A stretch of 64,000 bases of DNA from Mizuhopecten yessoensis (taxonomy: Eukaryota), in assembly GCF_002113885.1 (NCBI RefSeq), contig NW_018408705.1:334000-397999 (forward strand). The letters run 5' to 3'. Below are positions 8,374-41,579 of this stretch, in pieces. The notes under the pieces are model-generated. The model had not been told where the DNA came from. It was given only the letters and a program-made list of their open reading frames with translations, and did not search any database. Position 1 is the first letter of the stretch. Each line of letters begins with the position of its first letter. Both the position numbers and the translations under genes were made by a program.

Positions 8374-8782
8374 TCGTGTTGATTATGTCTCCGACGGATT
8401 TTGAGTGATAACATTATTCTCTGGATTGGTGCACATATACAAGTAAGGTATTTACATTGCAAGATGACCATGTGGCCCTAGTATTCTCATTTTGTGGCAT
8501 TTGCGTTGTTCTGATTGCATTTTGAGCGATTTTACCCTCGTCTGCCTTATTCGCCAGTAATACGTATATTATATATATACCCCATATCTACCTGGGTAGT
8601 GAGTAGGACAGCACCGAGTGACCATAGCCAAACTTTCGTCACGCTCTATTGACCAATGTTACCTTACCTGGAGATGTGCACGTGCCCGCTTGTGTCGGTG
8701 CTATTTTTAGCTCCGTGTACGACTTTGTGTTTATGTGTCGGGTGTCTACAGTAGGTGACAGCGGTCCGCTCTGTTCTACACC

Positions 8783-9853
8783 ATGGCCCCCAAAAAAACT
8801 GTCCCCACCAAGCATCAATCTACATCTAGCATTGTTAGTGAGGCACATAAAGTAATATATGAAGGTGTTTCAGAGGATTCCACGGCTGTTATGAAGCACA
8901 TGACTGAACTTTTTAATAGACTAGATACACGTCTTACCCACATTGAAAACCAAGTCATAAAGATTGATCAAGTCCAGAAGGATGTGACCTCGTTGACCTC
9001 TAAAGTCCATCAGTTAGATCATGAGGTGAAGAATATTGACGTTAAGTACAGGGAAATTCGCAATTCTGTGTCCAATGTTATCAGGCAGTCCAATGAAATG
9101 GAAAAGGGTGCCCAGGCCCTGAGTGATATGTATGACGATGTGAAGTCTTGTCTGGATCGAAACAACATTACTCTGGCCAATCTCAAAGCTGCTGATGACA
9201 AGAATGTAGTTGACACCACAAAAGTCATAGAAGAATTAACAGAGCTCCGTTCCGAGAGAACTAAGCTGAAGGATCTTGTCATAGACCTGCAATACAGGTC
9301 CATGAAGAACAACCTCATATTCCATGGACTACAAGGGGAAAATCCAGGGGAGGACACTGAGGCCAAACTGCGTGATTTCCTTTATTACGAGCTCGGGATT
9401 GACTCACACATAGATTTTGGGAATGTACATCGTTTTGGCAAGTTTGTGAACGGCAAGCATCGACCCATAGTGGCTAGATTTATTCACCACAAGGACCTAG
9501 AACTTGTTCGAGACAGTTCTTCGAAACTGAAGGGTTCTGGATTTTGGATCAACGAACAATTTCCAGCGGAAATCGAGGACAGACGTCGCAAGTTGTACCC
9601 TGTGCTTAAGCACTACAGAAGTGAAGGCTGTAGGGTTAAGTTGGTACGTGATCGGCTCTACGTTAATGGTAAGCTCTACCATGACGCCTCCTCGGAGGGC
9701 GTTACAGAGACAGTAGCTACATCTCGATCCACACAGAGAGAAGCTACCCAGCAGTCCTACCGTGATGCTTTGGACCGGACGCCGACTTCTGGTCAACGCC
9801 ATTCCAAGCGTCAACGTCGATTCACAGCTACGCCTACGCACTCGCCTACATAG
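8783..9853 (+). CDS. LINE ORF1p (coiled coil plus L1-ORF1/Transposase_22-like RRM and CTD), 356 aa
   Basis: Heptad-rich N-terminal half. Motifs DLQYRSMKNNLIFHGL, HRFG, RPIVARF, INEQFP..IEDRRRKL and DRLYVNG are typical of L1-type ORF1. Confidence 0.9.
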   Translation: MAPKKTVPTKHQSTSSIVSEAHKVIYEGVSEDSTAVMKHMTELFNRLDTRLTHIENQVIKIDQVQKDVTSLTSKVHQLDHEVKNIDVKYREIRNSVSNVIRQSNEMEKGAQALSDMYDDVKSCLDRNNITLANLKAADDKNVVDTTKVIEELTELRSERTKLKDLVIDLQYRSMKNNLIFHGLQGENPGEDTEAKLRDFLYYELGIDSHIDFGNVHRFGKFVNGKHRPIVARFIHHKDLELVRDSSSKLKGSGFWINEQFPAEIEDRRRKLYPVLKHYRSEGCRVKLVRDRLYVNGKLYHDASSEGVTETVATSRSTQREATQQSYRDALDRTPTSGQRHSKRQRRFTATPTHSPT

Positions 9854-9907
9854 GGGTGTCGGGGGGCAACAATCAACGACAGTACCAAGTGTGACCGGGC
9901 GAAACAT

Positions 9908-10767
9908 GTGTCTGATACCGATATCAGAATTATTTCCTGGAACGTAAATGGTGGAATAGAAAAAAAACTTAAAGTTACTGAATTCCGCAATGTTATACTT
10001 AACTATGATATTATTTTTTTATCCGAGTGCTGGATTCCAAAAGACTTTGAGGTAGACCTTGAGGACTTTCACGCAGTTGTTGTACCAAGGAAATTAACAC
10101 GCTGTACACAAGGTGGTGGATTGGTGTTACTAATACGTAATACTATTTTTAAATTTGTAAATGTAGGTAATGTTTTGTTTGATACAATTATACCGGTTAC
10201 TCTTGACCAGGATTTGACCAGTTGTACTGACAACCTAATACTGTTATTTACATATATTCCACCTAGTTCATCTCGTTTTTATGAACAATATGATTGTGAT
10301 ATTTTTTCAATTCTAGAAAACGTTATAAGTGAATATTCTGAATCCAGAAATGTAATGGTTATAGGTGATTTAAACAGTCGTACCCGTAATACAGATGATT
10401 TTATTTCATTCGACAATTTATATGGCGGTATACAGTCTCATATTGAATCCATTTTTAACTACTTAAGTGACACTGATGAAGAAAGGCTTCTGCCGATCAG
10501 AACAAACCCTGATCCAGGAGTCAACGAATTTGGTACAAGATTATTAAACCTATGTAAATCCTCGGGTCTAAGAATTTTAAATGGTAGAGACCTAGCCAAT
10601 CTATCTAGTGATTTTACTTTCTGTGGTGCAAATGGAATGAGTGTTATTGATTATGTATTAATGCCATTTAGTATGTTTTCTGTTGTTAAAAAATTCATGG
10701 TTTGCGAATTTGTTGAATTTTCCGACCATGCTCCATTGCACATTGAAATACACTGTAATTTAGGAGG

Positions 10768-10809
<42 letters not shown>

Positions 10810-13384
10810 GTATGATGATGACAATTCTAATGATAGACCTGTGTATAAATGGAAGGAGGAGTACCAACATCAATTTATCGAATCTGTAAGAGTTAATTTA
10901 GACTTAATAAAGAAATCAGTTTTAATCAATGATGAATTAAATCAATATTCTATTGATACCTGTGTAAGTAATTTTACTGATGTTTTACTAGGGACTATGA
11001 AACCATTTTTTCTAAGAAAACCGCCCAAAAATAACACTGATAAGCCCCCTGTTAAAGTTGACACCCACACCTTTTCTAGTTCCGAAGATAAGCCCTGGTT
11101 TAATGATCGTGTTAGAGCTCTACGTAAACAATATTTAGTTGCTTTAAAGAATTTCAACATTAACAAATGTTACTGGACACACACTCTTCTTATCCGTAAG
11201 AAAAAAGAGTACAAAATCCTGGAAAGTAAGTTTAAGAGGCAATATTTGAGCGCAGAAGGTGATATGTTGGAGTATATGAGAAAACATAACCCCGGGTCTT
11301 TTTATAAGAAATTTGGTAAGAAGAAAGCTAAAACACCAATGTGTAATGGTAATCAACTGTTCAATCATTTCAAAAACCTGTCTTCTGTACAACAAAATAA
11401 TGATCCAGTCCATCATGACGATTTTATTCTTACTGATTATGACACTGTTTTTGAGGAATTAGATGCTCCTATTTCGTTACAAGAAGTAAAAAATGCTATT
11501 CGGAAATTGAAATGTGGTAAATCACATGGACCTGATGGTTTGTTAAATGAATGTTTAAAAGCTGGCGTGGAATTACTTCTTCCAACTTTATCTACGTTGT
11601 TTAATTCTATACTAGAATCTGGTTATTTTCCTTCTAATTGGTCGTCAGCCATAATTATTCCTGTCCATAAGAAAGGTGTTTTAAATGACCCTAATAACTT
11701 TAGAGGTATCAGTTTAATTAGTTGTCTTTGTAAACTTTTTACCTCTGTACTAAATAAACGTATTTTAGATGTGTGTACAAAATATGACCTTATTACTGAT
11801 GCGCAATTCGGATTTCGTCCAGAACTTAGTACGATTGATGCAATTTTCGCATTACATTCTATTATAACGAAAACTTTATCTTCAAAGAAACGTTTGTACT
11901 GTTGCTTTGTGGACTTTCGCAAAGCGTTTGATTTTGTTGATAGATTAAGCTTATGGCGTAAGCTGACTAAGCTTGGTATTCGTGGGAAAATGTTATCCGT
12001 CATTAAATCATTTTACAAATCAGTTAAATCTTGTGTATCAACTAACGGTAAATGTTCTAATTATTTTGAGTGCAGTGTTGGATTAATGCAAGGGGAAATA
12101 TTATCGCCTTTATTGTTCTCAGTTTTTGTTAATGATTTTGAAACCTCATTTATTGAAAATGGTGCAACGGACTATGACTTTGGTGAATTAAGTTTGTTTT
12201 TGTTAATGTATGCAGATGACTTAGTATTGTTTTCCGAAACTATTGAAGGTTTACAGAGTCTTTTAGATAATCTGAATGTGTATTCTACTAAATGGAAATT
12301 AACAGTTAACACTGAGAAAACCAAAGTAGTTGTATTTAGAAACGGTGGTAGTATACGAGATAGAGAAAGATGGATGTATAATGGTTTGGAGGTGGAAGTT
12401 GTAGATGTTTTCAGCTACCTAGGAGTAAAACTGAAATTCAATAATAAATTTAATCATATACAGAAACAGTTATCTGACCAAGGAAGAAAGGCCATGTATG
12501 CTCTTTTTTCAAGCTCTTCTAACTTGAGCCTAAACTGTACAACGTTATTGCATTTATTTGATACGTATGTTTGTAGTATATTGCATTACGCATGTGAAGT
12601 ATGGGGATCTACAAAAGGTACGGATATTGAGAGGTTACACCTACACTTTTGTAAGAAGATTTTAAAAGTTAAGAAGTCGACTTGCAACGCAATGGTTTAT
12701 TTTGAATTAGGTCGACATCCTTTGGAAAATATAAGAAAATTCAGAATGATAAAATATTGGTTAAAACTAATGGATTCGAAAAATTGTATTTTGCAAACTG
12801 CGTATTCCTTTTTAAGTAGTAGCAATACAGGCAATTGCTTTAACTGGGTTAAGTATGTCAAACATTGTCTTTTTTCTCTCGGATTCGCAGATGTATGGAC
12901 AAATTATTATTCATATAACCATAAAAGTATTTTGTACATGATAAAGCAAAGAATATTTGATCAAAGTCAACAATATCTGAGAGGGCTATTAGAAACCTCA
13001 CCTAAATGTATTTTATATAAGCACTTAGCAAATCACCATACTCTTCAATACTATTTGACAAAGTATATTCCAATGAAATACCGGATCTGTTTATCTAAAC
13101 TTCGTCTTTCTGCACATAATTTAGCTATTGAGACTGGTAGATACAATAACATAACGAGAGAACAAAGACACTGTATGAGCTGCATTTCAGATATTGAAGA
13201 CGAATATCATTTTATTTTAATATGTAACAATTTTCATATTCTGAGAGTAAAATACATAAAACCATATTACTGGCGAAATCCTTCAATGTTTAAACTTGTA
13301 CAGTTACTAAGTGCTGATAATATCAGCGTTATTCGTAAACTTGCTAGATACATTTTTGAGGCAAATAAGGCACGAGTGACGTAA
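9908..13384 (+). CDS. LINE ORF2p: APE endonuclease, reverse transcriptase and C-terminal CCHC-type motif; no ATG at its start
   Basis: APE motifs SWNVNG, LSECW, GDLNSR, IDY, SDH. RT motifs NFRGISL, QFGFR, FVDFRKAFD, GLMQGEILSPLLF, YADD, YLG. Uninterrupted 1158 codons. Confidence 0.95.
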
Positions 13385-16423: not shown

Positions 16424-17330
16424 TTTTTAAGCTCACGAGGTCCACAGGACGGTAAACATAGGTCGTTGCGCTGCGATCGTTCAATTTAAAACGCTACTAG
16501 TCTTGAACGGCTCAGTGGACTTCGACTTAAATCCTTCCCCTCTTTCTATACGAATTAAGGGATGTAACCAAATTTTGTGCACAGCATCCTTGGGGAAAGG
16601 GGACTTAGTTTGTATAACGGTTGGTTGGTTCCCCTTTTGAAGCAGAGGGACGTAGTCCAATAAGGGAATCCAGAAGTACAGGTAAATCTTTCAAAATCCT
16701 CCTTCCCCTGTAGTGATTGAGTGAATTTAAACCAGATTAGATCATCCTTGGACGAATGGGACTAAATGTTTTATAAACGTAGAATGTGTCCAATCCCTCA
16801 TCCCTCCAACCCTACCCACACACTGAAGGCAGAGAGGCGGGGGCAAATAGGGGAAACATAATAAAATCTTTTAATCCTTCTCCTTCCATAAAAATGAAGG
16901 TTTTNNNNNNNNNNNNNNNNNNNNNNNNNNNNNNNNNNNNNNNNNNNNNNNNNNNNNNNNNNNNNNNNNNNNNNNNNNNNNNNNNNNNNNNNNNNNNNNN
17001 NNNNNNNNNNNNNNNNNNNNNNNNNNNNNNNNNNNNNNNNNNNNNNNNNNNNNNNNNNNNNNNNNNNNNNNNNNNNNNNNNNNNNNNNNNNNNNNNNNNN
17101 NNNNNNNNNNNNNNNNNNNNNNNNNNNNNNNNNNNNNNNNNNNNNNNNNNNNNNNNNNNNNNNNNNNNNNNNNNNNNNNNNNNNNNCCCCCCACCCCCCC
17201 GAGGGGTCCGCTAGGAAAAGTATGTCATGACTTGGAAACATTTGAGATCTCCACCTACCAACATACATACTGATTACAATTGCTAGGCATGAAGACACGA
17301 ATACATGCTATTAAGATTGGCACTGGGTTT
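16424..17330 (+). mobile_element. Degenerate HINE-like element spanning the assembly gap
   Basis: 5' box ttttaagctcac, followed by imperfect internal repeats (aaatccttc.cct...; catccttgg). Confidence 0.4.
16905..17186. other. Assembly gap (282 N)
   Basis: Run of N. Confidence 1.
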
Positions 17331-27984: not shown

Positions 27985-28029
27985 GACGAGAAAAACCAAA
28001 TTATGACTACAAACGTCTGGCTTCGTCAG
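27985..28029 (+). CDS. nAChR alpha coding exon 2 (45 nt, loop D: DEKNQIMTTNVWLRQ)
   Basis: Acceptor ttttattgttttgcag| and donor CAG|GTAAGG. This is the canonical 45-nt nAChR exon. Confidence 0.96.
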
Positions 28030-29705
28030 GTAAGGCATCACATCACAAGAGTGATTTTCTCTTGAAATCAATCTTCAAATAAGGAGGACGAAATGTTATC
28101 GTTCATAATAACTGCATTCAATACGAAGCACGAGAACTTGCGCTTTTTTGTATATATGTTAGAATAATTGACATTATGAACAGAAAAGGCTATAACTGTC
28201 GGTTGTAACTACACACTATTTCAAACATTTAGATGAGTTATTGAGATAACACGTAGTAGATTCAACACGATAACGTTTGATTTAAAACACACATTCACCA
28301 AGACCTATCGAGTTTGTGTGTTGCCTGGCCTATACGTTTGCCCATCGCTCGGAGTAGGGAATCCGTTGCCATTCGAGAGACGGGAGCCTCACAACGTTAG
28401 CGCATCTGATGGAGGTAGTGTTCCCTATCGGCACTATTTTATTCGTAATATAAGTCATAAATGCTTTATATCGTCGATAGGATCAGCAGACATGTGTTAA
28501 ATCACATTTAAAGTACAGAATCGCCTGGTTTACGGACGCCGTTATAACGATACCCTGGTCAATGATAGATGATTCGCTCTCTAATTCAGATTGATTTATT
28601 TTTGCTCAGTTTGACCAAAGCAATTGTACTAAGCCCGGATTCCCCGTCGCCGTATCTCTAACTATACACTCACTAGATGGATTCCGCTACAGCAGTGAGG
28701 ATGAGTATGAGAGAGAGCAGCTGGCTATCGATGTTTGTACCGATCAGTCGAACGTTTGTAGCCGACCTGTCATCAACACTGGCTAAACAAAATACGGCGT
28801 TTGAGTAAACGTTCATGGTAAACTATTCGATCTTTGACGTTTTACAAGGTCGGTCTGTAAATGAAATGGAACTAAGGACAAACCAATTTCTCGTTCGGAC
28901 ACGAAACTGAAAACATTATGACTTTTGGACGTAAATAACGAATGACATAATTGTCAACCATGCTGAAACCTCCATAAATAGTTATGTGCCTGTACATCAT
29001 GTATGTAAAGCCAAGTCGTTCCATTCATTTACTGATATGAATGATAGATACTCTCGGAAGTTGTCACTTTTAATAAAACGCCCATGTGGAGATGGGTCTA
29101 CGATACATGCCGAACGTCTCTGAATGTGATGTCGGAGCTTGGCAGATGTACATTTGTAGCCGTGTGTCATTGCTGCTGTGTGTTATTGTAACCGCTTTTT
29201 AGTTAGAAGTATTGATGTGTATCTGCCTCGCTAAAATACATATTTTTCAAGCTTAATTAGTTCATTCCGTATTTGAAAACGTTCCGTTTGAAATCTAAAT
29301 GACGGTATCGTGTAACCGCGCGTTACACGGACTTTATGTAAGAGGAGAACGTGGCACAGGATCGGAGGGCTCATCATTATTGTTCTGTACTGAAACATGT
29401 AATCAGGATCCTCAAGTCTTCTTACCGCCGAATTATTAACGGTGGGTGACATATGCCGGGATATGTAACCAACACGCGATGTACGACCTCACTGCACGTG
29501 CATTTTGAGCTATAATAACGCAACAGCACGCGATTTGTCGGTTTGAGAAAAGCTAACGTACGGCGTATAATAACCAAGTGCAAGAAACACTTTTATTGAT
29601 TCCCAAACAAATTGTTTCAGACATATTTTTTCAACATATGATGTAATATTGAAGAAAGCGATATTTCAACGAACTTTGTATCTGACAAAGTATTCCGGAT
29701 AACCG

Positions 29706-31504
29706 TTTTTTAGCTCACCTTGCACAAAGTGCCAAGTGAGATTATGCCGTTGTGCGTCGTCCGTCGTCCGTCCGTCCATCCGGCGTCAATATTTTACTTT
29801 AAACGACTTCTTCTTAATAACTGAAAGGCCTAGGGTGATGATATTTGGCCAGAAGCAAAGTGGGATGAAGGGCTACCAAGTTTGTTCAAATAAATGACCT
29901 TTACCTATGTTCAAGGTCACAGAGGTCAAATAGGTTAAAAACTTTAAACAACTTCTTCTGAATAACTTAGAGGCCTATGATAATGATATTTGGCCAGTAA
30001 CATGCTATGATAAAGGACTACTAAGTTTTTTTAAAAATGAATGACCTTTACCTATATTCAAGGTCTTAAGGGTCAAATATGTTTAAAGCCTTTTAAACAA
30101 CTTTTTCTCAATAATGAAAAGGTTTAGGATGATGCTATTTGACCAGTAGCATGCTGTAACAGAGGGCTACAAAGTTTGTTCAAATGAATTACCTTGACCT
30201 ATATTCAAGGTCACAGAGGTCAAATATGTTTAAAACCTTTAAACAACTTCTTCTGAATAACCAAGAAGCCTAGGATAATGATATTTGACCAGTAACATGC
30301 TGCGATAAAGGGCTACCAAGTTTGTTCAAACAAATGACCTTTACTTATATTCAATGTCACAGGGGTCAAATATGTTTAAAACCTTTAACAACTTCTTCGG
30401 AATAACCAAGAGGCCTTGGATAATGATATTTGGTCAGTAATTTGCTGGGATGAAGGGCTACCAAGTTTGTTCAAATGAATGACCTTGATAAACTTTCAAG
30501 GTCACAGGGGTGAAGTGTGTTAAACATCTTCAAACAACTTCTTCTCAATAACCAAAAGGCAAAGGGTACTGCTATTGGGCCTGTAGCATGCTGGGCTGAA
30601 GGGCTAGCAAGTTTGTTCCAATGAATGACCTTGACCTGCTTTGAAGGTCACAGGGGTCAAATGTGTTAAAATATTCAAACGACTTCTTCTCAGTAACCAA
30701 AATGCCCAAAATACTGATATTGGGCCTGCAGTATGCATGGATGAAGGGCTACCATGTTTGTTCAAATCAATGACCTTGTCCTTTTTTTTCAAGATCACAG
30801 GGGTTTTATATATGTAAGATCTTTAAACAACTCCTCTTCTGAATACCTAAGAGGCATAGGATAATGCTATTTTGCCAATAACATGCTGGGATGAAGGGCT
30901 ACCAAGTTTGTTCAAATGAATGACCTTCATCTATGTTCTAGGCCACAGGGGTCAAATATGTAAACATCTTTTAAAAACTTCTTCTCAATAACCAAAAGGC
31001 CTTGGATGATGATATTTTGCCAGTAACATGCTGGGATGAAGGGCTACCAAGTTTGACCAAACAAATGACCTTCATCTATTTTCAAGGCCACAGGGGTCAA
31101 ATATGTTTAAAATCTTTGCACAACTTCTCCTGAATACCCAAGAGGCCTAGAACAATGATATTTGACTAGTATCATGCTCAGATGAAGGGCTACCAAGTTT
31201 GTTCAAACAAACGACCTTCGCCCATTTTCAATGTCACAGGGGTCAAATATGTGTAAATCTAAGAGGCAAAGGCTAATGATATTTGGCCAGTAACATGCTG
31301 GGATGAAGGGCTACAAAGTTTGTTCAAATGAATTACCTTCATCTATGTTCAAGGTCACAGGGGTCAAATATGTTTAAAACCTTTAATAGATTCAAATGGA
31401 TCGAACACAGATGTTTTGCCTGTAGCTGTATATTAGTCCACTTTTAAGATTATAAGTGTGAGATTAATACCAGCTGAGCGATTCAGGCCCATAGGGCCTC
31501 TTGT
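29706..31504 (+). mobile_element. Helentron-associated (HINE-like) element with about 11 internal tandem repeats of about 146 bp
   Basis: 5' ttttttagctcacct box with hairpin, (GTCC)n microsatellite, unit starts aaacaacttcttc at about 29801, 29947, 30095, 30241, 30387 and onward, 3' box agctgagcga plus aggccc-ata-gggcct hairpin. Confidence 0.85.
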
Positions 31505-33548: not shown

Positions 33549-34862
33549 TAACGCACGTAACAACTCTTGCAAATTAAAGCTTCTAGCAGTCTTCGCTTGG
33601 GAGAAAACAGAGACATGTTTATTATAACAGACTTGTTTGAAATCATTGGTATCGAGGAGTTGTCACTATACACAGGTTGTCAGAACCGCCACTGAATGTG
33701 GAAATTTCTATATCTAGCTGCCTAATAAGTAATTGCCATATATATATAGTATATGCACACAGTGCTTAACGTTGAACATATATTCTTGCAAAAGATATAT
33801 AATATAATGTATTATTAAATATATAGTGGGACCTTGTTATACTGCCAGAGTTTATCTAGCGAAATGTTGACGTCATAAAGAAGCAAAATTGAAATAGTAG
33901 TAAAAACTAACTATTTGAAAAGGAAAAGAGGACCATGAAATGTGTTGACAGTAAGCGAGGTGTTAAATCGATTGAGGGGCGAAACATCGAGGTTTTACTG
34001 TATATATAAGTGTATGCACATATACCCTCGTTTTCGAGCTGACCGTTAGAATAAGATATCGCACGTGGGCAAGCCATACAATACAAACTATTCTAACTTA
34101 CAGGTTTTGGCTATACAATGTATTGCTTTACTGCTTTGGTGTGACGTCACTTTGTCCGGCCCTTATTGTTGTTTACCACACATCTCTTGATTTGGCAGTT
34201 TTCCTACCAATTCCCAGGCCATTCATGCTTAGTTTACAATGGCGACTTTTCACCCAAGACGACCATCATTCCGTACAAAAGTGTGTTCATGTCCAAAAGT
34301 TCGCTTTGATATAAAGATCACTGCGATTTAAAATCAATAATTGTTTTTGCTTCTGATCAGGACACAGCCAATCCACATAGTTCGACTAATGAGGAATTTT
34401 ACTTGAAAAACATTAAACCACGTACGTGCTACCGGTGTGTCGGTGGTACTCGATGACGTCACATTATGACGAAAGGCGATGAAGGGGGTAAACAATTTCG
34501 GATTTGTTCTTTCTTTATGTACAGGAGTGAACTGAATTTGTCCCGTCGACAGAATCTTGATGAAATGTGGTCATTGTGATATTGGAACAGACCTCTTTAT
34601 TAAGACAAATATCGCTCTTTACACACACTTATTTATGCAAATTGTATTATCCATAAGAAGAAAGTCAGGTGTTCTAATCCAAAAATAAAAGTTTCTGCAA
34701 AACGATGTCCATTCTAAAGAGGTTATACTGTAGCCTGCAAGGTGATGGGTAACTTAATTCCTAAAACGATCCCGTGTTTCTGCCTTTCTGTGTGGGGGAC
34801 AGACACAATGACGTCACGGCTTACCTAACCCGCTTTGTCCTCTCTCTCACCCTACTAACCAG

Positions 34863-34972
34863 GAATGGTATGACTACAAATTGAGCTGGCAGAAGGCAGA
34901 GTATGGAGGGGTGGACCGACTCTACGTCCCCTCAAAACAAATATGGCTACCGGACATCGTACTTTACAATAA
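34863..34972 (+). CDS. nAChR alpha exon 3a (110 nt; [36 protein letters not shown]), alternative
   Basis: Pyrimidine tract plus ccag| acceptor and AA|GTAGGT donor, phase 0 to 2, loop A motif WLPDIVLYN. Not in the ORF track. Confidence 0.95.
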
Positions 34973-35771
34973 GTAGGTAGAGGTTGGTACTGGTCAATGT
35001 AGTGGTCAGCATGCTAGTTCTCCAATATGTCGCACGGACACATTATCGTGATCAGACTAAATACGCCTTTACATGACAAACTCTTTCTGTTCTGCAAATG
35101 TACAAAGTAAATCCGTTAAACATGTGTATGTTTTCAAGCAAAACAATGCAATATGACCATGCTGTAATGGAACAAAATCTGTAAAGCATGTCAGTCGCCA
35201 AACCACAATAATAGTCCGCGGGTATTGGAGGATATATATGTCGTGGGTACTGACGACATCGGGACCATCCAGGAGTCAGGTAATGAAGAAAATCCAAAGA
35301 GGACATAACTAACGATTTTCCTTTTTTTATTCTACGTATTTTTGTATGTAAATTTCAATTTAGATTGAACATTCATGACATTTTGAAAATACAAACAGTA
35401 GCGTGATGTCGATCCTTTTGAACTGTGCCAGGCCATGGCTTGGTCCGGTGCCTGTTGAGTCGTTAGCCCTGTTATAAAGGTAAGACACCAAGGGTAAACC
35501 ATCACTCATAACATATCCCGTCAACGCTTTGTTTTTTGTGTGGGCCTTTGGTTTCTGTTATCTAAGAATAATAAACTAACATAGAACGGTACGGAACGGA
35601 AGCAGCGAGGCCAGGTTACCGTACGTATTCTACTGCGCACTCTGTCCTCTCCTGGTCTTCTCACTTCCTGCATTAGACGAGCATGCGCATGGGGCGTGGA
35701 ACAGGTCTGTACTAACACTGGGAAGCTCGTGTTTTACAAACTGACTTGGTTTAATTATTTGTTTCTGAAAG

Positions 35772-35881
35772 TGGTGGTTTGACGCCAGCTTGGTTTGGAA
35801 CCCGGCCGAATATGCCAACATCACCAAACTGGAGGTACCTTCCCCCAAAATATGGACGCCCGACATTGTCCTCTTTAACAA
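35772..35881 (+). CDS. nAChR alpha exon 3b (110 nt; WWFDASLVWNPAEYANITKLEVPSPKIWTPDIVLFN), alternative paralogue of 3a
   Basis: Acceptor tttgtttctgaaag| and donor AA|GTAAGT. Same length and phase as 3a, open frame, and colinear with 3a without gaps. Confidence 0.9.
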
Positions 35882-37096
35882 GTAAGTACGCATGTACTGG
35901 AAGTTTGGACTTTTTCTTTCTTATTTATGTCCGTTCGTTAATGTACTGTATGATCATTTTATTTACTTTTCATCAGCTCGTGTCATTGATTATAATGAAA
36001 AAGAAATGTAAATGTTAATAATGTGTTACATATATCGAAGAGATCTAAAAAGTGATGATTTTGATTGTCATAACCTTATAACATTATATATAAATCATCA
36101 GCATCCATTTTTCGAGTGTAATATTTTGGCATGGTTGTTCAAAAGGTGATTAGTTAAGTAGATAGTGTAATTTTTGTTTTTCTTGTATCTTTAAAAAAAA
36201 AAAGCATCACTTGATTTTAAATTTTACAGACAGTTAAGATATTACCAATGTAAGTTATATCCAAAATTACAAGTTTTACAAGTTCATAGACGGATTTATT
36301 AGATGTTGAAAATGTCGTTAAACAATTATTAAGCTAATCACCTAAAAAAACCAGCTGGATCATGGTTTCTCCAATTGACAGAAAAATATCGTATCCGTGT
36401 TATTAATGGAATCTAAAGCCGTTATGGAGAATACTCGTTATACAATGATAATGGTCAACACTGACCATCTCTGGACCTACTGTGAATGTGCGTGCATTTA
36501 TAAAGTACATGTGTTTATATGACGTACTTACATGTATATAATGTGTTTAATATTTCTTTATTTTCCTTTACATGTTTAAGCAATGTCATGTCATATATTT
36601 CACCATGAACACACTTTTCATGATTTCACATCGAGTGCTTGTTTTAGCTATTTGATACAGAGACATACTAGATTCACGGTTAATGTTTATATAATGACTT
36701 ATATTGGCAATGAATTTACTACAGATTTTTTGATCGAATGATTACATGGAATTTTATTTTGTTTCAATTGTTTCACGTATAGTATGTGAAGTGCACATGA
36801 CATTTCATTGTAGCATTTTTCTTTTGAAGGATTGCAGTGACTGTCACGTTTAACAACACTTAAAGCACGTGACGCCCCGTGCGTTGAATAAATGTCGGAC
36901 TTGCTTTTCAGACAAACTATTCCTAAGCGAGGGATAGTCGAGAGCATATTGGAATACACAAAGCAATTACTCTCCAAAATGTCTTTTTTCTTCCCACGCC
37001 AAAATTTAATTTGGATTGATACACATCCTGTTTTATTAGAAAGTGAGTAGTATATACAGTACATAGGGTACGTCACCAATGATCCATCCTTGTTTA

Positions 37097-38199: not shown

Positions 38200-39770
38200 T
38201 CTTAAATATCTTAGAGGCCCTCAACCTGTACATGTACCATCTAAATACCTCACAGGCCCTCAACCTGTACATGTACCATCTAAATATCTTACAGACCCTC
38301 AACCTGTACATGTACCATCTAAATGTCTTGCAAACCCTCAACCTGTACATGTACCATCTAAATATCTTAGACGCCCTCAACCTGTACATGTACCATCTAA
38401 ATATCTTAGAGGCCCTCAACATGTACATGTACCATCTAAATACCTCACAGGCCCTCAACCTGAACATGTACCATTTAAATATCTAAGAGGCCCTCAACCT
38501 GTACATGGACCATCTAAATATCTTAGCGGCCCTCAACCTGTACATGTACCATCTAAATACCTCACAGGCCCTCAACCTGTACATGTACCATCTAAATACC
38601 TTACAGACCCTCAACCTGTACATGTACCATCTAAATACCTCACAGACCCTCAACCTGTACATGTACCATCTAAATACCTCACAGGCCCTCAACCTGTACA
38701 TGTACCATCTAAATACCTTACAGACCCTCAACCTGTACATGTACCATCTAAATACCTCACAGGCCTACAACCTGTACATGTACCATCTAAATATCTTACA
38801 GACCCTGTACATGTACCATCTAAATATCTTACAGACCCTGTACATGTACCATCTAAATACCTTACATGCCCTCAACCTGGTCATGTACCATCTAAATATC
38901 TTACAGGCCCTCAACCTGTACATGTACCATCTAAATACCTTACAGGCCCTCAACCTGGTCATGTACCATCTAAATATCTTACAGGCCCTCAACCTGTACA
39001 TGTACCATCTAAATATCTTACAGACCCTGTACATGTACCATCTAAATATCTTACAGGCCCTGTACATGTACCATCTAAATACCTTACAGGCCCTCAACCT
39101 GGTCATGTACCATCTAAATATCTTACAGGCCCTTAACCTGTATATGTACCATCTAAATACCTTACAGGCCCTCAACCTGGTCATGTACCATCTAAATATC
39201 TTGCAGGCCCTCAACCTGTACATGTACCATCTAAATATATTAGAGGCCCTCAACTTGTACATGTACCATCTTAATATCTTACAGACCCTCAACCTGTACA
39301 TGTACATGTACCATCTAAATATCTTACCGACCCTCATCCTGTACATGTACCATCTAAATATCTTAGAGGCCCTCAACTTATACATGCACCATCTAAATAC
39401 CTCAAAGGCCCTCAACCTGTACGTGTAAATGTACCATCTAATATATGACAGACCCTCATCCTGTACATGTACCATCTTAATATCTTACAGACCCTCAAGA
39501 TGTACTTCTAAATATCTTACAGACCCTCAACCTGTACATGTACCATCTCAATATCTTACAGGTCATCAACCTGTACATGTTCCATCTCAATATCTTACAG
39601 GCCCTCAACCTGTACATGTACCATCTAAATATGTTAGAGGCCCTCAACTTGTACATGTACCATCTAAATACCTCACAGACCCTCAACCTGTACATGTACC
39701 ATCTAAATATCTTACAGGCCATCAACCTGTACATGTTCCATCTAAATATCTTACAGACCCTTAACCTATA
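38200..39770. repeat. 39-bp minisatellite (about 40 copies, with some 33-bp deletion variants) in intron 3
   Basis: Unit aggccctcaacctgtacatgtaccatctaaatatcttac. Confidence 0.97.
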
Positions 39771-40579: not shown

Positions 40580-41579
40580 TGCTGACGGCCACTACGAAGT
40601 GACCTTGATGACAAAGGCCACATTACACCCAAACGGTAAAGTTGTTTGGGAGCCTCCTGCAATCTACAAGTCGTCGTGTCAGATAGACGTGGAGTTCTTC
40701 CCCTTTGATATCCAGCAGTGCAGCATGAAGTTCGGGTCGTGGACGTACGACGGCGATCAGGTCGACATCATCCACATGTGCTCAGACGAAGCCATGGACC
40801 GGAAGTTGATTGCAGAGGGTATTGACCTGCGAGATTTCTACCCGAGCGTAGAATGGGACATCCTTGAAGGGACCGCCCGGAAGAACGTCCGCCATTATCC
40901 CTGCTGTCCCGAGCCGTATCCAGATATCACATTTAACATCACAATGAGGCGGAAGACTCTGTTCCACACAGTCAACCTTATCATCCCATGTGTCTCAATC
41001 TCATTCCTAACTGTCCTAGTGTTCTATTTACCCTCAGACAGCGGAGAGAAAATTACTCTGTGTATCTCCATTTTGCTCTCGCTTACTGTATTTTTCCTGC
41101 TGTTGGCGGAGATAATTCCGCCTACCTCCATAGTGGTGCCCCTGATCGGCAAATACCTCCTCTTCACCATGATCCTGGTTACCTTGTCCATCCTTGTCAC
41201 CGTCATAGTCCTCAACGTTCACTTCCGGTCTCCCTCCACACACACCATGTCGCCATGGGTGCGAAGGGTGTTCCTCAACATACTTCCACGACTGTTGATC
41301 ATGCGTAGACCTACCACTGACCGGGAGGGAACGCAGTCACGTGTTACTGTAAGAACTTGGAACGGGGTGGAAATACGAAATTCCTACCCAGATCATATAT
41401 GTAACACGATAGACGGGGAGGACATACGGTTCATCCGCCATGGACTAGAGGAACTAGTTGCTGCAGCGGAGACAGATTCCTGCCATAGGAGAAAACCGGT
41501 CCCGTTGGAGATACAAAACGCTGTGGATAGCGTTTTCTTCATTGCTGAGCATTTAAAGTCAGAGGACCAGGAAAATTCA
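40580..41579 (+). CDS. nAChR alpha coding exon 4 (1000 nt; loop E, Cys-loop, loops B/F/C, M1-M3, cytoplasmic loop, MA helix)
   Basis: Acceptor acctttcag|T completes the AA-T Asn codon and continues [13 protein letters not shown]...[12 protein letters not shown]. Donor TCA|GTAAGT at 41580. Confidence 0.96.

Follow-up and report, generated by a model that had tools for sequence, protein, structure and literature searches.

The nicotinic receptor gene described here, from the scallop Mizuhopecten yessoensis, carries two tandem versions of its third exon, and the downstream version, exon 3b, is almost certainly a real, expressed and ancient alternative exon. Chance is excluded because the proteins predicted with either exon are identical to RefSeq scallop isoforms at 505 of 505 positions (the 3a form to X2, the 3b form to X1) and because 3b is spliced in four of four sequencing runs. 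RefSeq identity, spliced contigs and mollusc-wide isoform pairs likewise rule out a pseudo-exon, and two separate genes or an assembly duplicate are ruled out by the exons being 56% alike and flanked by single-copy exons 2 and 4. On balance, the choice between the two exons would probably retune both interfaces of the subunit, through Tyr93 of the principal binding face and position 79 of the complementary face.

Gene structure and identity

The window, which is the whole stretch of DNA analysed, comprises 64,000 nucleotides of the M. yessoensis assembly GCF_002113885.1 (contig NW_018408705.1, positions 334,000-397,999, forward strand), and the coordinates given below are those of the window. 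It contains one nicotinic receptor gene, on the + strand, with a six-part model (exons 1, 2, 3a, 3b, 4 and 5):

1615-1809, + strand: exon 1, encoding the signal peptide, helix alpha1 and strands beta1; ATG start, GT donor and in-frame join, with a RefSeq-identical protein
27985-28029, + strand: exon 2, 45 nt, loop D; AG/GT ends, the 3' end being the loose end upstream of 3b in the contigs of four of four runs
34863-34972, + strand: alternative exon 3a, 110 nt, residues 59-94, with Lys64, Tyr79 and Tyr93; matches RefSeq isoform X2; spliced contig in none of four runs
35772-35881, + strand: alternative exon 3b, 110 nt, residues 59-94, with Trp59, Ser64, the Asn74 sequon, Glu79 and Phe93; RefSeq isoform X1; spliced in four of four runs
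40580-41579, + strand: exon 4, 1000 nt, encoding loop E, the Cys-loop, loops B, F and C with the vicinal cysteines, M1-M3 and the intracellular loop
44081-44248, + strand: coding part of exon 5, with M4 and the stop codon

Exons 3a and 3b are both 110 nt long and of phase 0/2, and each has an AG acceptor and a GT donor (cAG..GTaggt for 3a, aAG..GTaagt for 3b). They are identical at 62 of 110 nucleotides and 19 of 36 residues, with 17 residues changed. The 36-residue receptor segment encoded by 3b starts WWFD, contains YANIT and ends PDIVLFN, the corresponding stretches of 3a being EWYD, YGGVD and PDIVLYN; translation of both exons returned the residues (EWYD/WWFD, YGGVD/YANIT, LYN/LFN) just as an earlier note on this DNA had read them. 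Inclusion of 3a alone or 3b alone gives a protein of 505 aa, inclusion of both leads to a stop at codon 161 and omission of both to a stop at codon 82. With respect to the frame the two exons are thus mutually exclusive alternatives, in line with the switch by splicing that the same note had proposed.

Residues are numbered as in the muscle alpha chain, from an ungapped alignment in which residues 2-36 of the 3b query correspond to residues 60-94 of the chain. By that alignment the Phe of 3b is residue 93, Asn-Ile-Thr begins at 74 and Glu is residue 79, and the absence of gaps against muscle alpha chains upholds the identification of the swapped Tyr as alpha-Tyr93. Positions in AChBP were mapped by ungapped alignment with an offset that we take to be correct.

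Both isoforms exceed the curated cut-offs of PF02931 and PF02932, the exon 4 product matches a protein of Pecten maximus at 97% identity, and the 3a form shares 71% identity with Lymnaea subunit type E (LnAChR-E). A tree of the part that follows exon 3 unites the bivalve genes with those of gastropods in a single clade (SH-aLRT 92) and separates this from type C (100); the cephalopod genes sit at the base without resolution. By these comparisons of sequence, the gene is a molluscan type-E nicotinic alpha subunit, corresponding to type E of Lymnaea and Aplysia. Alignment of exon 4 to human alpha4 and alpha3 shows that both isoforms retain the vicinal cysteines, the Trp of loop B and the two tyrosines of loop C; the splice choice leaves loops B and C untouched. 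The principal aromatic box (Tyr93, Trp149, Tyr190, Tyr198) is complete in the 3a form, and consists of Phe93 and the other three residues in the 3b form. Non-alpha subunits are recognised by the absence of vicinal cysteines, which the 3b form keeps, as it does the loop B Trp and loop C tyrosines. The suggestion in the earlier note that 3b could be a structural form is a weak reading. A His stands in place of the usual Tyr just before M1 (at about 40965, in exon 4); it is common to most bivalve and gastropod type-E subunits and is not found in those of limpet or octopus.

The contig holds four nicotinic genes on the same strand, labelled by motifs and similarity as alpha7-like, beta-type, type E and type-C-like alpha, and the neighbouring genes are likely to be partner subunits. 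According to the earlier note, Phe at the Tyr93 position is typical of invertebrate non-alpha subunits, such as insect beta1 and C. elegans UNC-29; the one non-alpha gene examined on this point, the neighbouring beta-type gene of the same contig, has Phe93 and lacks vicinal cysteines. A region search with exon 3b gave one match among two candidates, to a Lottia beta-type protein only. Capture of 3b from the neighbouring beta-type gene is not supported, as 3b and the beta-type exon do not cluster together on the exon tree.

Elsewhere in the gene, two long open reading frames in intron 1 (8759-13381, + strand) resemble ORF1 and the endonuclease-led ORF2 of a LINE retroelement, and the same intron contains a 282-base run of N (16905-17186). 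A tandem array of a 145-bp unit in 10 copies occupies 29797-31378 in intron 2, and one of a 39-bp unit in about 41 copies occupies 38203-39767, between exons 3b and 4. Short pieces at 36134-36340 represent a dispersed repeat common to unrelated contigs in all four runs.

Age of the exon pair and the residues that it changes

Isoform pairs were collected from 16 molluscs, namely three scallops, one oyster, two mussels, three abalones, a limpet, Gigantopelta, Aplysia, Biomphalaria, Pomacea and two octopuses; this count excludes Tubulanus, where two different genes are concerned, and also the nemertean Lineus, which is not a mollusc and was considered separately. The differences are confined to exon 3 in 15 of the 16 pairs, and the Aplysia pair has four further positions. 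One further gene call contains both exon types, the a-type lying ahead of the b-type as in the scallop, and the same exon is present in octopus, freshwater snails and land snails. A tree of 82 exon peptides, built on 36 columns only and with unpaired exons classed by eye, gathers all 32 b-type exons into one clade (support 100/96) that also takes in one exon of the brachiopod Lingula, and places the a-type exons among non-mollusc outgroups. Monophyly of the b-type exons is not rejected (p-AU 0.431), which is no proof of monophyly. Because the b-type exons form one clade, the duplication of exon 3 is likely to be older than the split of bivalves, gastropods and cephalopods. Mean identity is 0.60 among b-type and 0.75 among a-type exons; the lower value also fits relaxed selection. 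Among four scallop genera, only one or two of the 36 residues of 3b differ. Two versions of this exon also occur in the nemertean Lineus, eight residues apart, both with Tyr93 and one with Gly94; neither lies in the b clade, and the Lineus pair would be either an independent or an older event.

The most constant difference between the paired exons is at position 79, which would lie on the complementary face; it had escaped the earlier note, as had the apparent commonness of 3b. Residue 79 differs in 16 of 16 pairs, with Glu in 13 of the b-forms and mostly as Tyr to Glu. Taking all exons, the a-type has Tyr in 21 and His in one, and the b-type has Glu in 26, Leu in four and Gln in two. No single residue is invariant in b-type exons, given that position 79 is Leu or Gln in 6 of 32. 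Lys occupies position 64 in 19 of 22 a-type exons and in none of the 32 b-type exons. At position 93, Tyr is exchanged for Phe in 13 of 16 pairs, and both exons have Tyr in the two Mytilus and in Patella. All 22 a-type exons have Tyr93; among b-type exons there is Phe in 26 of 32, Tyr in five and Asp in one, the last being the unionid Potamilus. Retention of Phe in most 3b orthologues, which the earlier reading needed, was accordingly found (13 of 16 paired genes; 26 of 32 b-type exons and none of 22 a-type exons). In some pulmonates, too, 3b has Tyr93 and the exon pair is nonetheless retained. Trp59 is confined to scallops. In the alpha subunits of chelicerates (scorpion, spider, horseshoe crab), Phe93 together with vicinal cysteines is the only form on record.

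The N-glycan site fared less well as a conserved part of the switch. The sequon at 74 occurs in 5 of 16 pairs (scallops and mussels), in 6 of 32 b-type exons and in none of the 22 a-type exons. In a background of 162 exon-3-like stretches from 150 representatives, it was found 48 times, 40 of these beside Tyr93, and human alpha2 and alpha4 have it at the same site, next to Tyr93. In that background Glu79 occurs in five stretches, four of them with Phe93. A glycan as conserved switch is ruled out by the 6 of 32 b-type exons and the 48 of 162 background stretches. Asn74 of Aplysia AChBP is glycosylated, according to the available part of PMC11050823. Because background stretches, human alpha2 and alpha4 and Aplysia AChBP have it, the scallop sequon is probably used but ordinary.

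Loop C has decayed repeatedly among the orthologues of type E, in clams, in a Gigantopelta paralogue, in Mytilus and in Bradybaena, and these cases amount to alpha-to-non-alpha conversions. The vicinal cysteines are missing from heterodont clams and from one Gigantopelta paralogue, and both loop C tyrosines are missing from Mytilus. The Gigantopelta paralogue and Mytilus retain both exons, those of Mytilus both having Tyr93 yet differing at 64 and 79; only b-type exons were recovered from the heterodont clams. Since the exon pair is kept despite lost loop C features, these genes suggest that it may be retained for something beyond the principal face.

Transcript use and candidate splice control

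Exons 2, 3b and 4 are joined in contigs of four of four runs from four studies; the contig covers exactly exon 3b, and the 5' end of exon 4 is the loose end downstream of it. These are 4 of the 23 listed runs; no listed run is on record as RNA, the RNA status of the four was guessed, and their contigs span long introns. Spliced 3a was absent from the contigs of the four runs, which is no proof of absence as contigs drop rare forms; in one run a depth-3 contig extends from 3a into the intron. Of 69 Logan-assembled mollusc orthologues (many rows being near-copies and non-independent), 23 extend as far as position 79, and every one of these is b-type. The evidence for use of 3a consists of RefSeq models and records from Aplysia and Lymnaea: the records named type E in both genera and Aplysia 'alpha 1' are a-type, and Aplysia 'alpha 2' is b-type. 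The type-E clones of Lymnaea and Aplysia presumably derive from nervous tissue. We infer that bulk tissue mainly uses 3b and that use of 3a is restricted. An intron 2 stretch at 28590-28817, which ends at a GT donor and whose 5' end was guessed from an AG, is joined to 3b in one run's contig (depth 6); with its in-frame stops it would be a cryptic or poison exon.

Several short motifs near the two exons are candidates for control of the choice:

34853-34859, + strand: TACTAAC abutting the 3a acceptor, with ACTAAC at -9; candidate STAR/Quaking-type silencer
35308, 35575 and 35711, + strand: three more ACTAAC; candidate sites
35681-35716, + strand: two GCATG and one TACTAAC upstream of 3b; putative RBFOX-type sites and branch point

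We take ACTAAC to be linked to Quaking/How and GCATG to RBFOX proteins. In the interval that spans both exons with 150 nt on either side, ACTAAC occurs four times against 0.18 expected from the gene's introns and GCATG five times against 1.2, counts for which motifs and window were picked after looking and in which ACTAAC is also the branch-point consensus. Neither motif lies within 150 nt of the gene's three remaining internal or last exons. At 9 nt upstream of 3a, one ACTAAC is too near the AG for a usual branch point, and it makes the best candidate for a silencer. Steric exclusion is not supported, the 799-nt intron between 3a and 3b and the 44-nt AG-free zone before 3b arguing against it. 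Nor was there a convincing docking-site hairpin among 52 inverted pairs, the best perfect pair, scored with no shuffle control, being one of 15 nt (34277-34291 with 36604-36618) that brackets both exons. The frameshift that results from both exons or neither would fit exclusion by decay.

Functional interpretation of the exon choice

Data from other receptors and from AChBP bear on positions 93 and 79. In mouse muscle receptors, Y93F cuts theta, which we read as the diliganded gating constant, from 45 to 0.7 (Table II of PMC2525745), although the same substitution is reported to be without effect on ACh binding energy (PMC11655062). In the available text of these sources Y93F is not a clean loss of affinity, which limits the claim of the earlier note that it lowers agonist potency. 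The mouse mutant has the same substitution at the same position as 3b, but is an engineered single change in a vertebrate receptor, whereas 17 residues differ in the natural exon. One review regards the hydroxyl of Tyr93 as crucial in ACh recognition (available part of PMC4006026). Pinnatoxins contact both Tyr93, of the principal face, and Arg79, of the complementary face, in Aplysia AChBP, and spirolide and gymnodimine contact Tyr93 (excerpted text of PMC7723979); for Arg79, hydrogen bonding with Glu153 and Glu193 has been analysed (in the accessible portion of PMC3923797). The loop C tips of type E and type C have a Glu near the cysteines, so that Glu79 of a 3b subunit would face an acidic neighbour. 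The beta1-type (J) non-alpha subunits and Alvinella Alpo4 resemble 3b in having Phe at the loop A aromatic position; they lack vicinal cysteines, unlike scallop 3b, which keeps the cysteines, the loop B Trp and the loop C tyrosines. Alpo4 is described as unresponsive to ACh in the available section of PMC10338036.

The proposed retuning of both faces would work as follows. Two tandem 110-nt exons are readable one at a time, and 3b would be the version spliced into most bulk transcripts. The change of Tyr93 to Phe would weaken the principal binding face, and that of Tyr79 to Glu would alter the complementary face offered to the neighbouring subunit. Exon 3a may have stayed ancestral-like and strongly conserved, as the likely neuron- or stage-restricted form, 3b having diverged and become common in bulk tissue. 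A STAR/Quaking-type protein on the acceptor ACTAAC perhaps silences 3a elsewhere, transcripts with both exons or neither would be removed by nonsense-mediated decay, and the glycan would be a lineage-specific extra and not the switch.

A narrower explanation, that of the earlier note, has loss of the Tyr93 hydroxyl and a new glycan making a low-potency or structural subunit, with the other differences as passengers. It draws on the distribution of Phe93 (26 of 32 b-type exons, no a-type exon), on the occurrence of Phe93 in the neighbouring beta-type gene and in Alpo4, on the lower gating of Y93F and on the recovery of b-type exons only from heterodont clams, in which loop C is lost. It is nevertheless rather unlikely, in view of the Tyr93 in 3b of Mytilus, Patella and some pulmonates that still keep the pair, the rarity of the sequon in b-type exons and its frequency beside Tyr93 elsewhere, the indifference of loops B and C to the exon choice, and the constitutive Phe93 of chelicerate alphas. 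Another reading is a switch mainly of assembly or trafficking, in which the apical loop and strand beta3 encoded by the exon would set the partners (type C alpha, beta J) and per-site pharmacology would be little changed. Such a role has a precedent in exon 4/4' of insect alpha4, described as influencing assembly (available text of PMC2064938), and accords with the constantly changed positions 64 and 79 being remote from the aromatic box and with persistence of the pair in genes that have no working loop C; but the Phe93 kept across bivalves, gastropods and cephalopods is left unexplained by an assembly-only role, which is judged improbable.

It is very unlikely that the exons are near-equivalent, each tied to the splicing programme of another tissue, with 3b drifting under relaxed selection. 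The greater variability of 3b, including Asp93 in one unionid, and the candidate regulatory motifs beside both exons speak for this reading, but the differences at 64, 79 and 93 are directional and long kept in three classes, and scallop 3b has hardly changed among genera. Selection of 3b as a form tolerant of dinoflagellate cyclic imines or conotoxins is suggested by the toxin contacts with Aplysia AChBP described above and by the accumulation of cyclic-imine toxins in bivalves, and is considered highly improbable: the contact with Tyr93 is one of ring stacking and would survive with Phe (PMC11050823, in its available part), the same exon is found in octopus and in freshwater and land snails, and mollusc AChBP binds the toxins tightly, so that contact does not imply selection.

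Exon duplication is a familiar mechanism in nicotinic genes, and exon 3 of insect alpha6 covers loop D. Insect alpha4 exons 4/4' and alpha6 exons 3a/3b and 8a/8b/8c are likewise tandem, mutually exclusive and conserved across species, and change functional regions, the alpha4 pair altering loop E and the Cys-loop region and alpha6 exon 8 altering M2 (PMC2064938, in the text available). The scallop pair, at residues 59-94 and loop A, differs from these in gene lineage and exon, in changing an aromatic-box residue and in spanning three molluscan classes. The Lymnaea LnAChR-E (ABA60384.1), Aplysia type E/'alpha 1' (AAL78648.1) and Aplysia 'alpha 2' (AAL78649.1) records are orthologues of the scallop gene in the same clade, and on alignment 'alpha 1' and 'alpha 2' are the a- and b-forms, respectively, of a single gene. 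They carry separate subunit names, and no text calling them splice forms was found; Aplysia 3b differs from scallop 3b in having Leu79 and no sequon. For many molluscs, RefSeq annotation already includes the two isoforms. A description of the 3a/3b choice was not found in the literature searched, and the original Lymnaea and Aplysia cloning papers could mention it; the main text of Jiao 2019 (PMC6896357), as available, nowhere uses 'isoform' and contains 'splic' a single time, among its references, and the available portions of PMC3874043, PMC8414863 and PMC7419297 have nothing on the choice.

It is tentatively suggested, as a possibility that is more doubtful than the retuning itself, that a splice switch in place since before the bivalve, snail and cephalopod split sets a neuronal full-alpha form against one used throughout the body, in which the principal site is detuned and the complementary face acidic, that the cloned type-E subunit is the minority form, and that the switch may have enabled the repeated loss of loop C. 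If true, an aromatic-box residue would here be exchanged naturally and under the control of splicing. The natural 3a/3b pair is suited to testing the roles of loop A Tyr93 and position 79, and it recasts the Aplysia 'alpha 1' and 'alpha 2' records as one gene. Molluscan nicotinic pharmacology, at Aplysia and Lymnaea synapses, in shellfish exposed to neonicotinoids and algal toxins and in cone-snail prey, is read from cloned subunits; if a core subunit has two binding-site forms and the cloned one is the less common, expression and knockdown work may have used, or measured, the wrong isoform.
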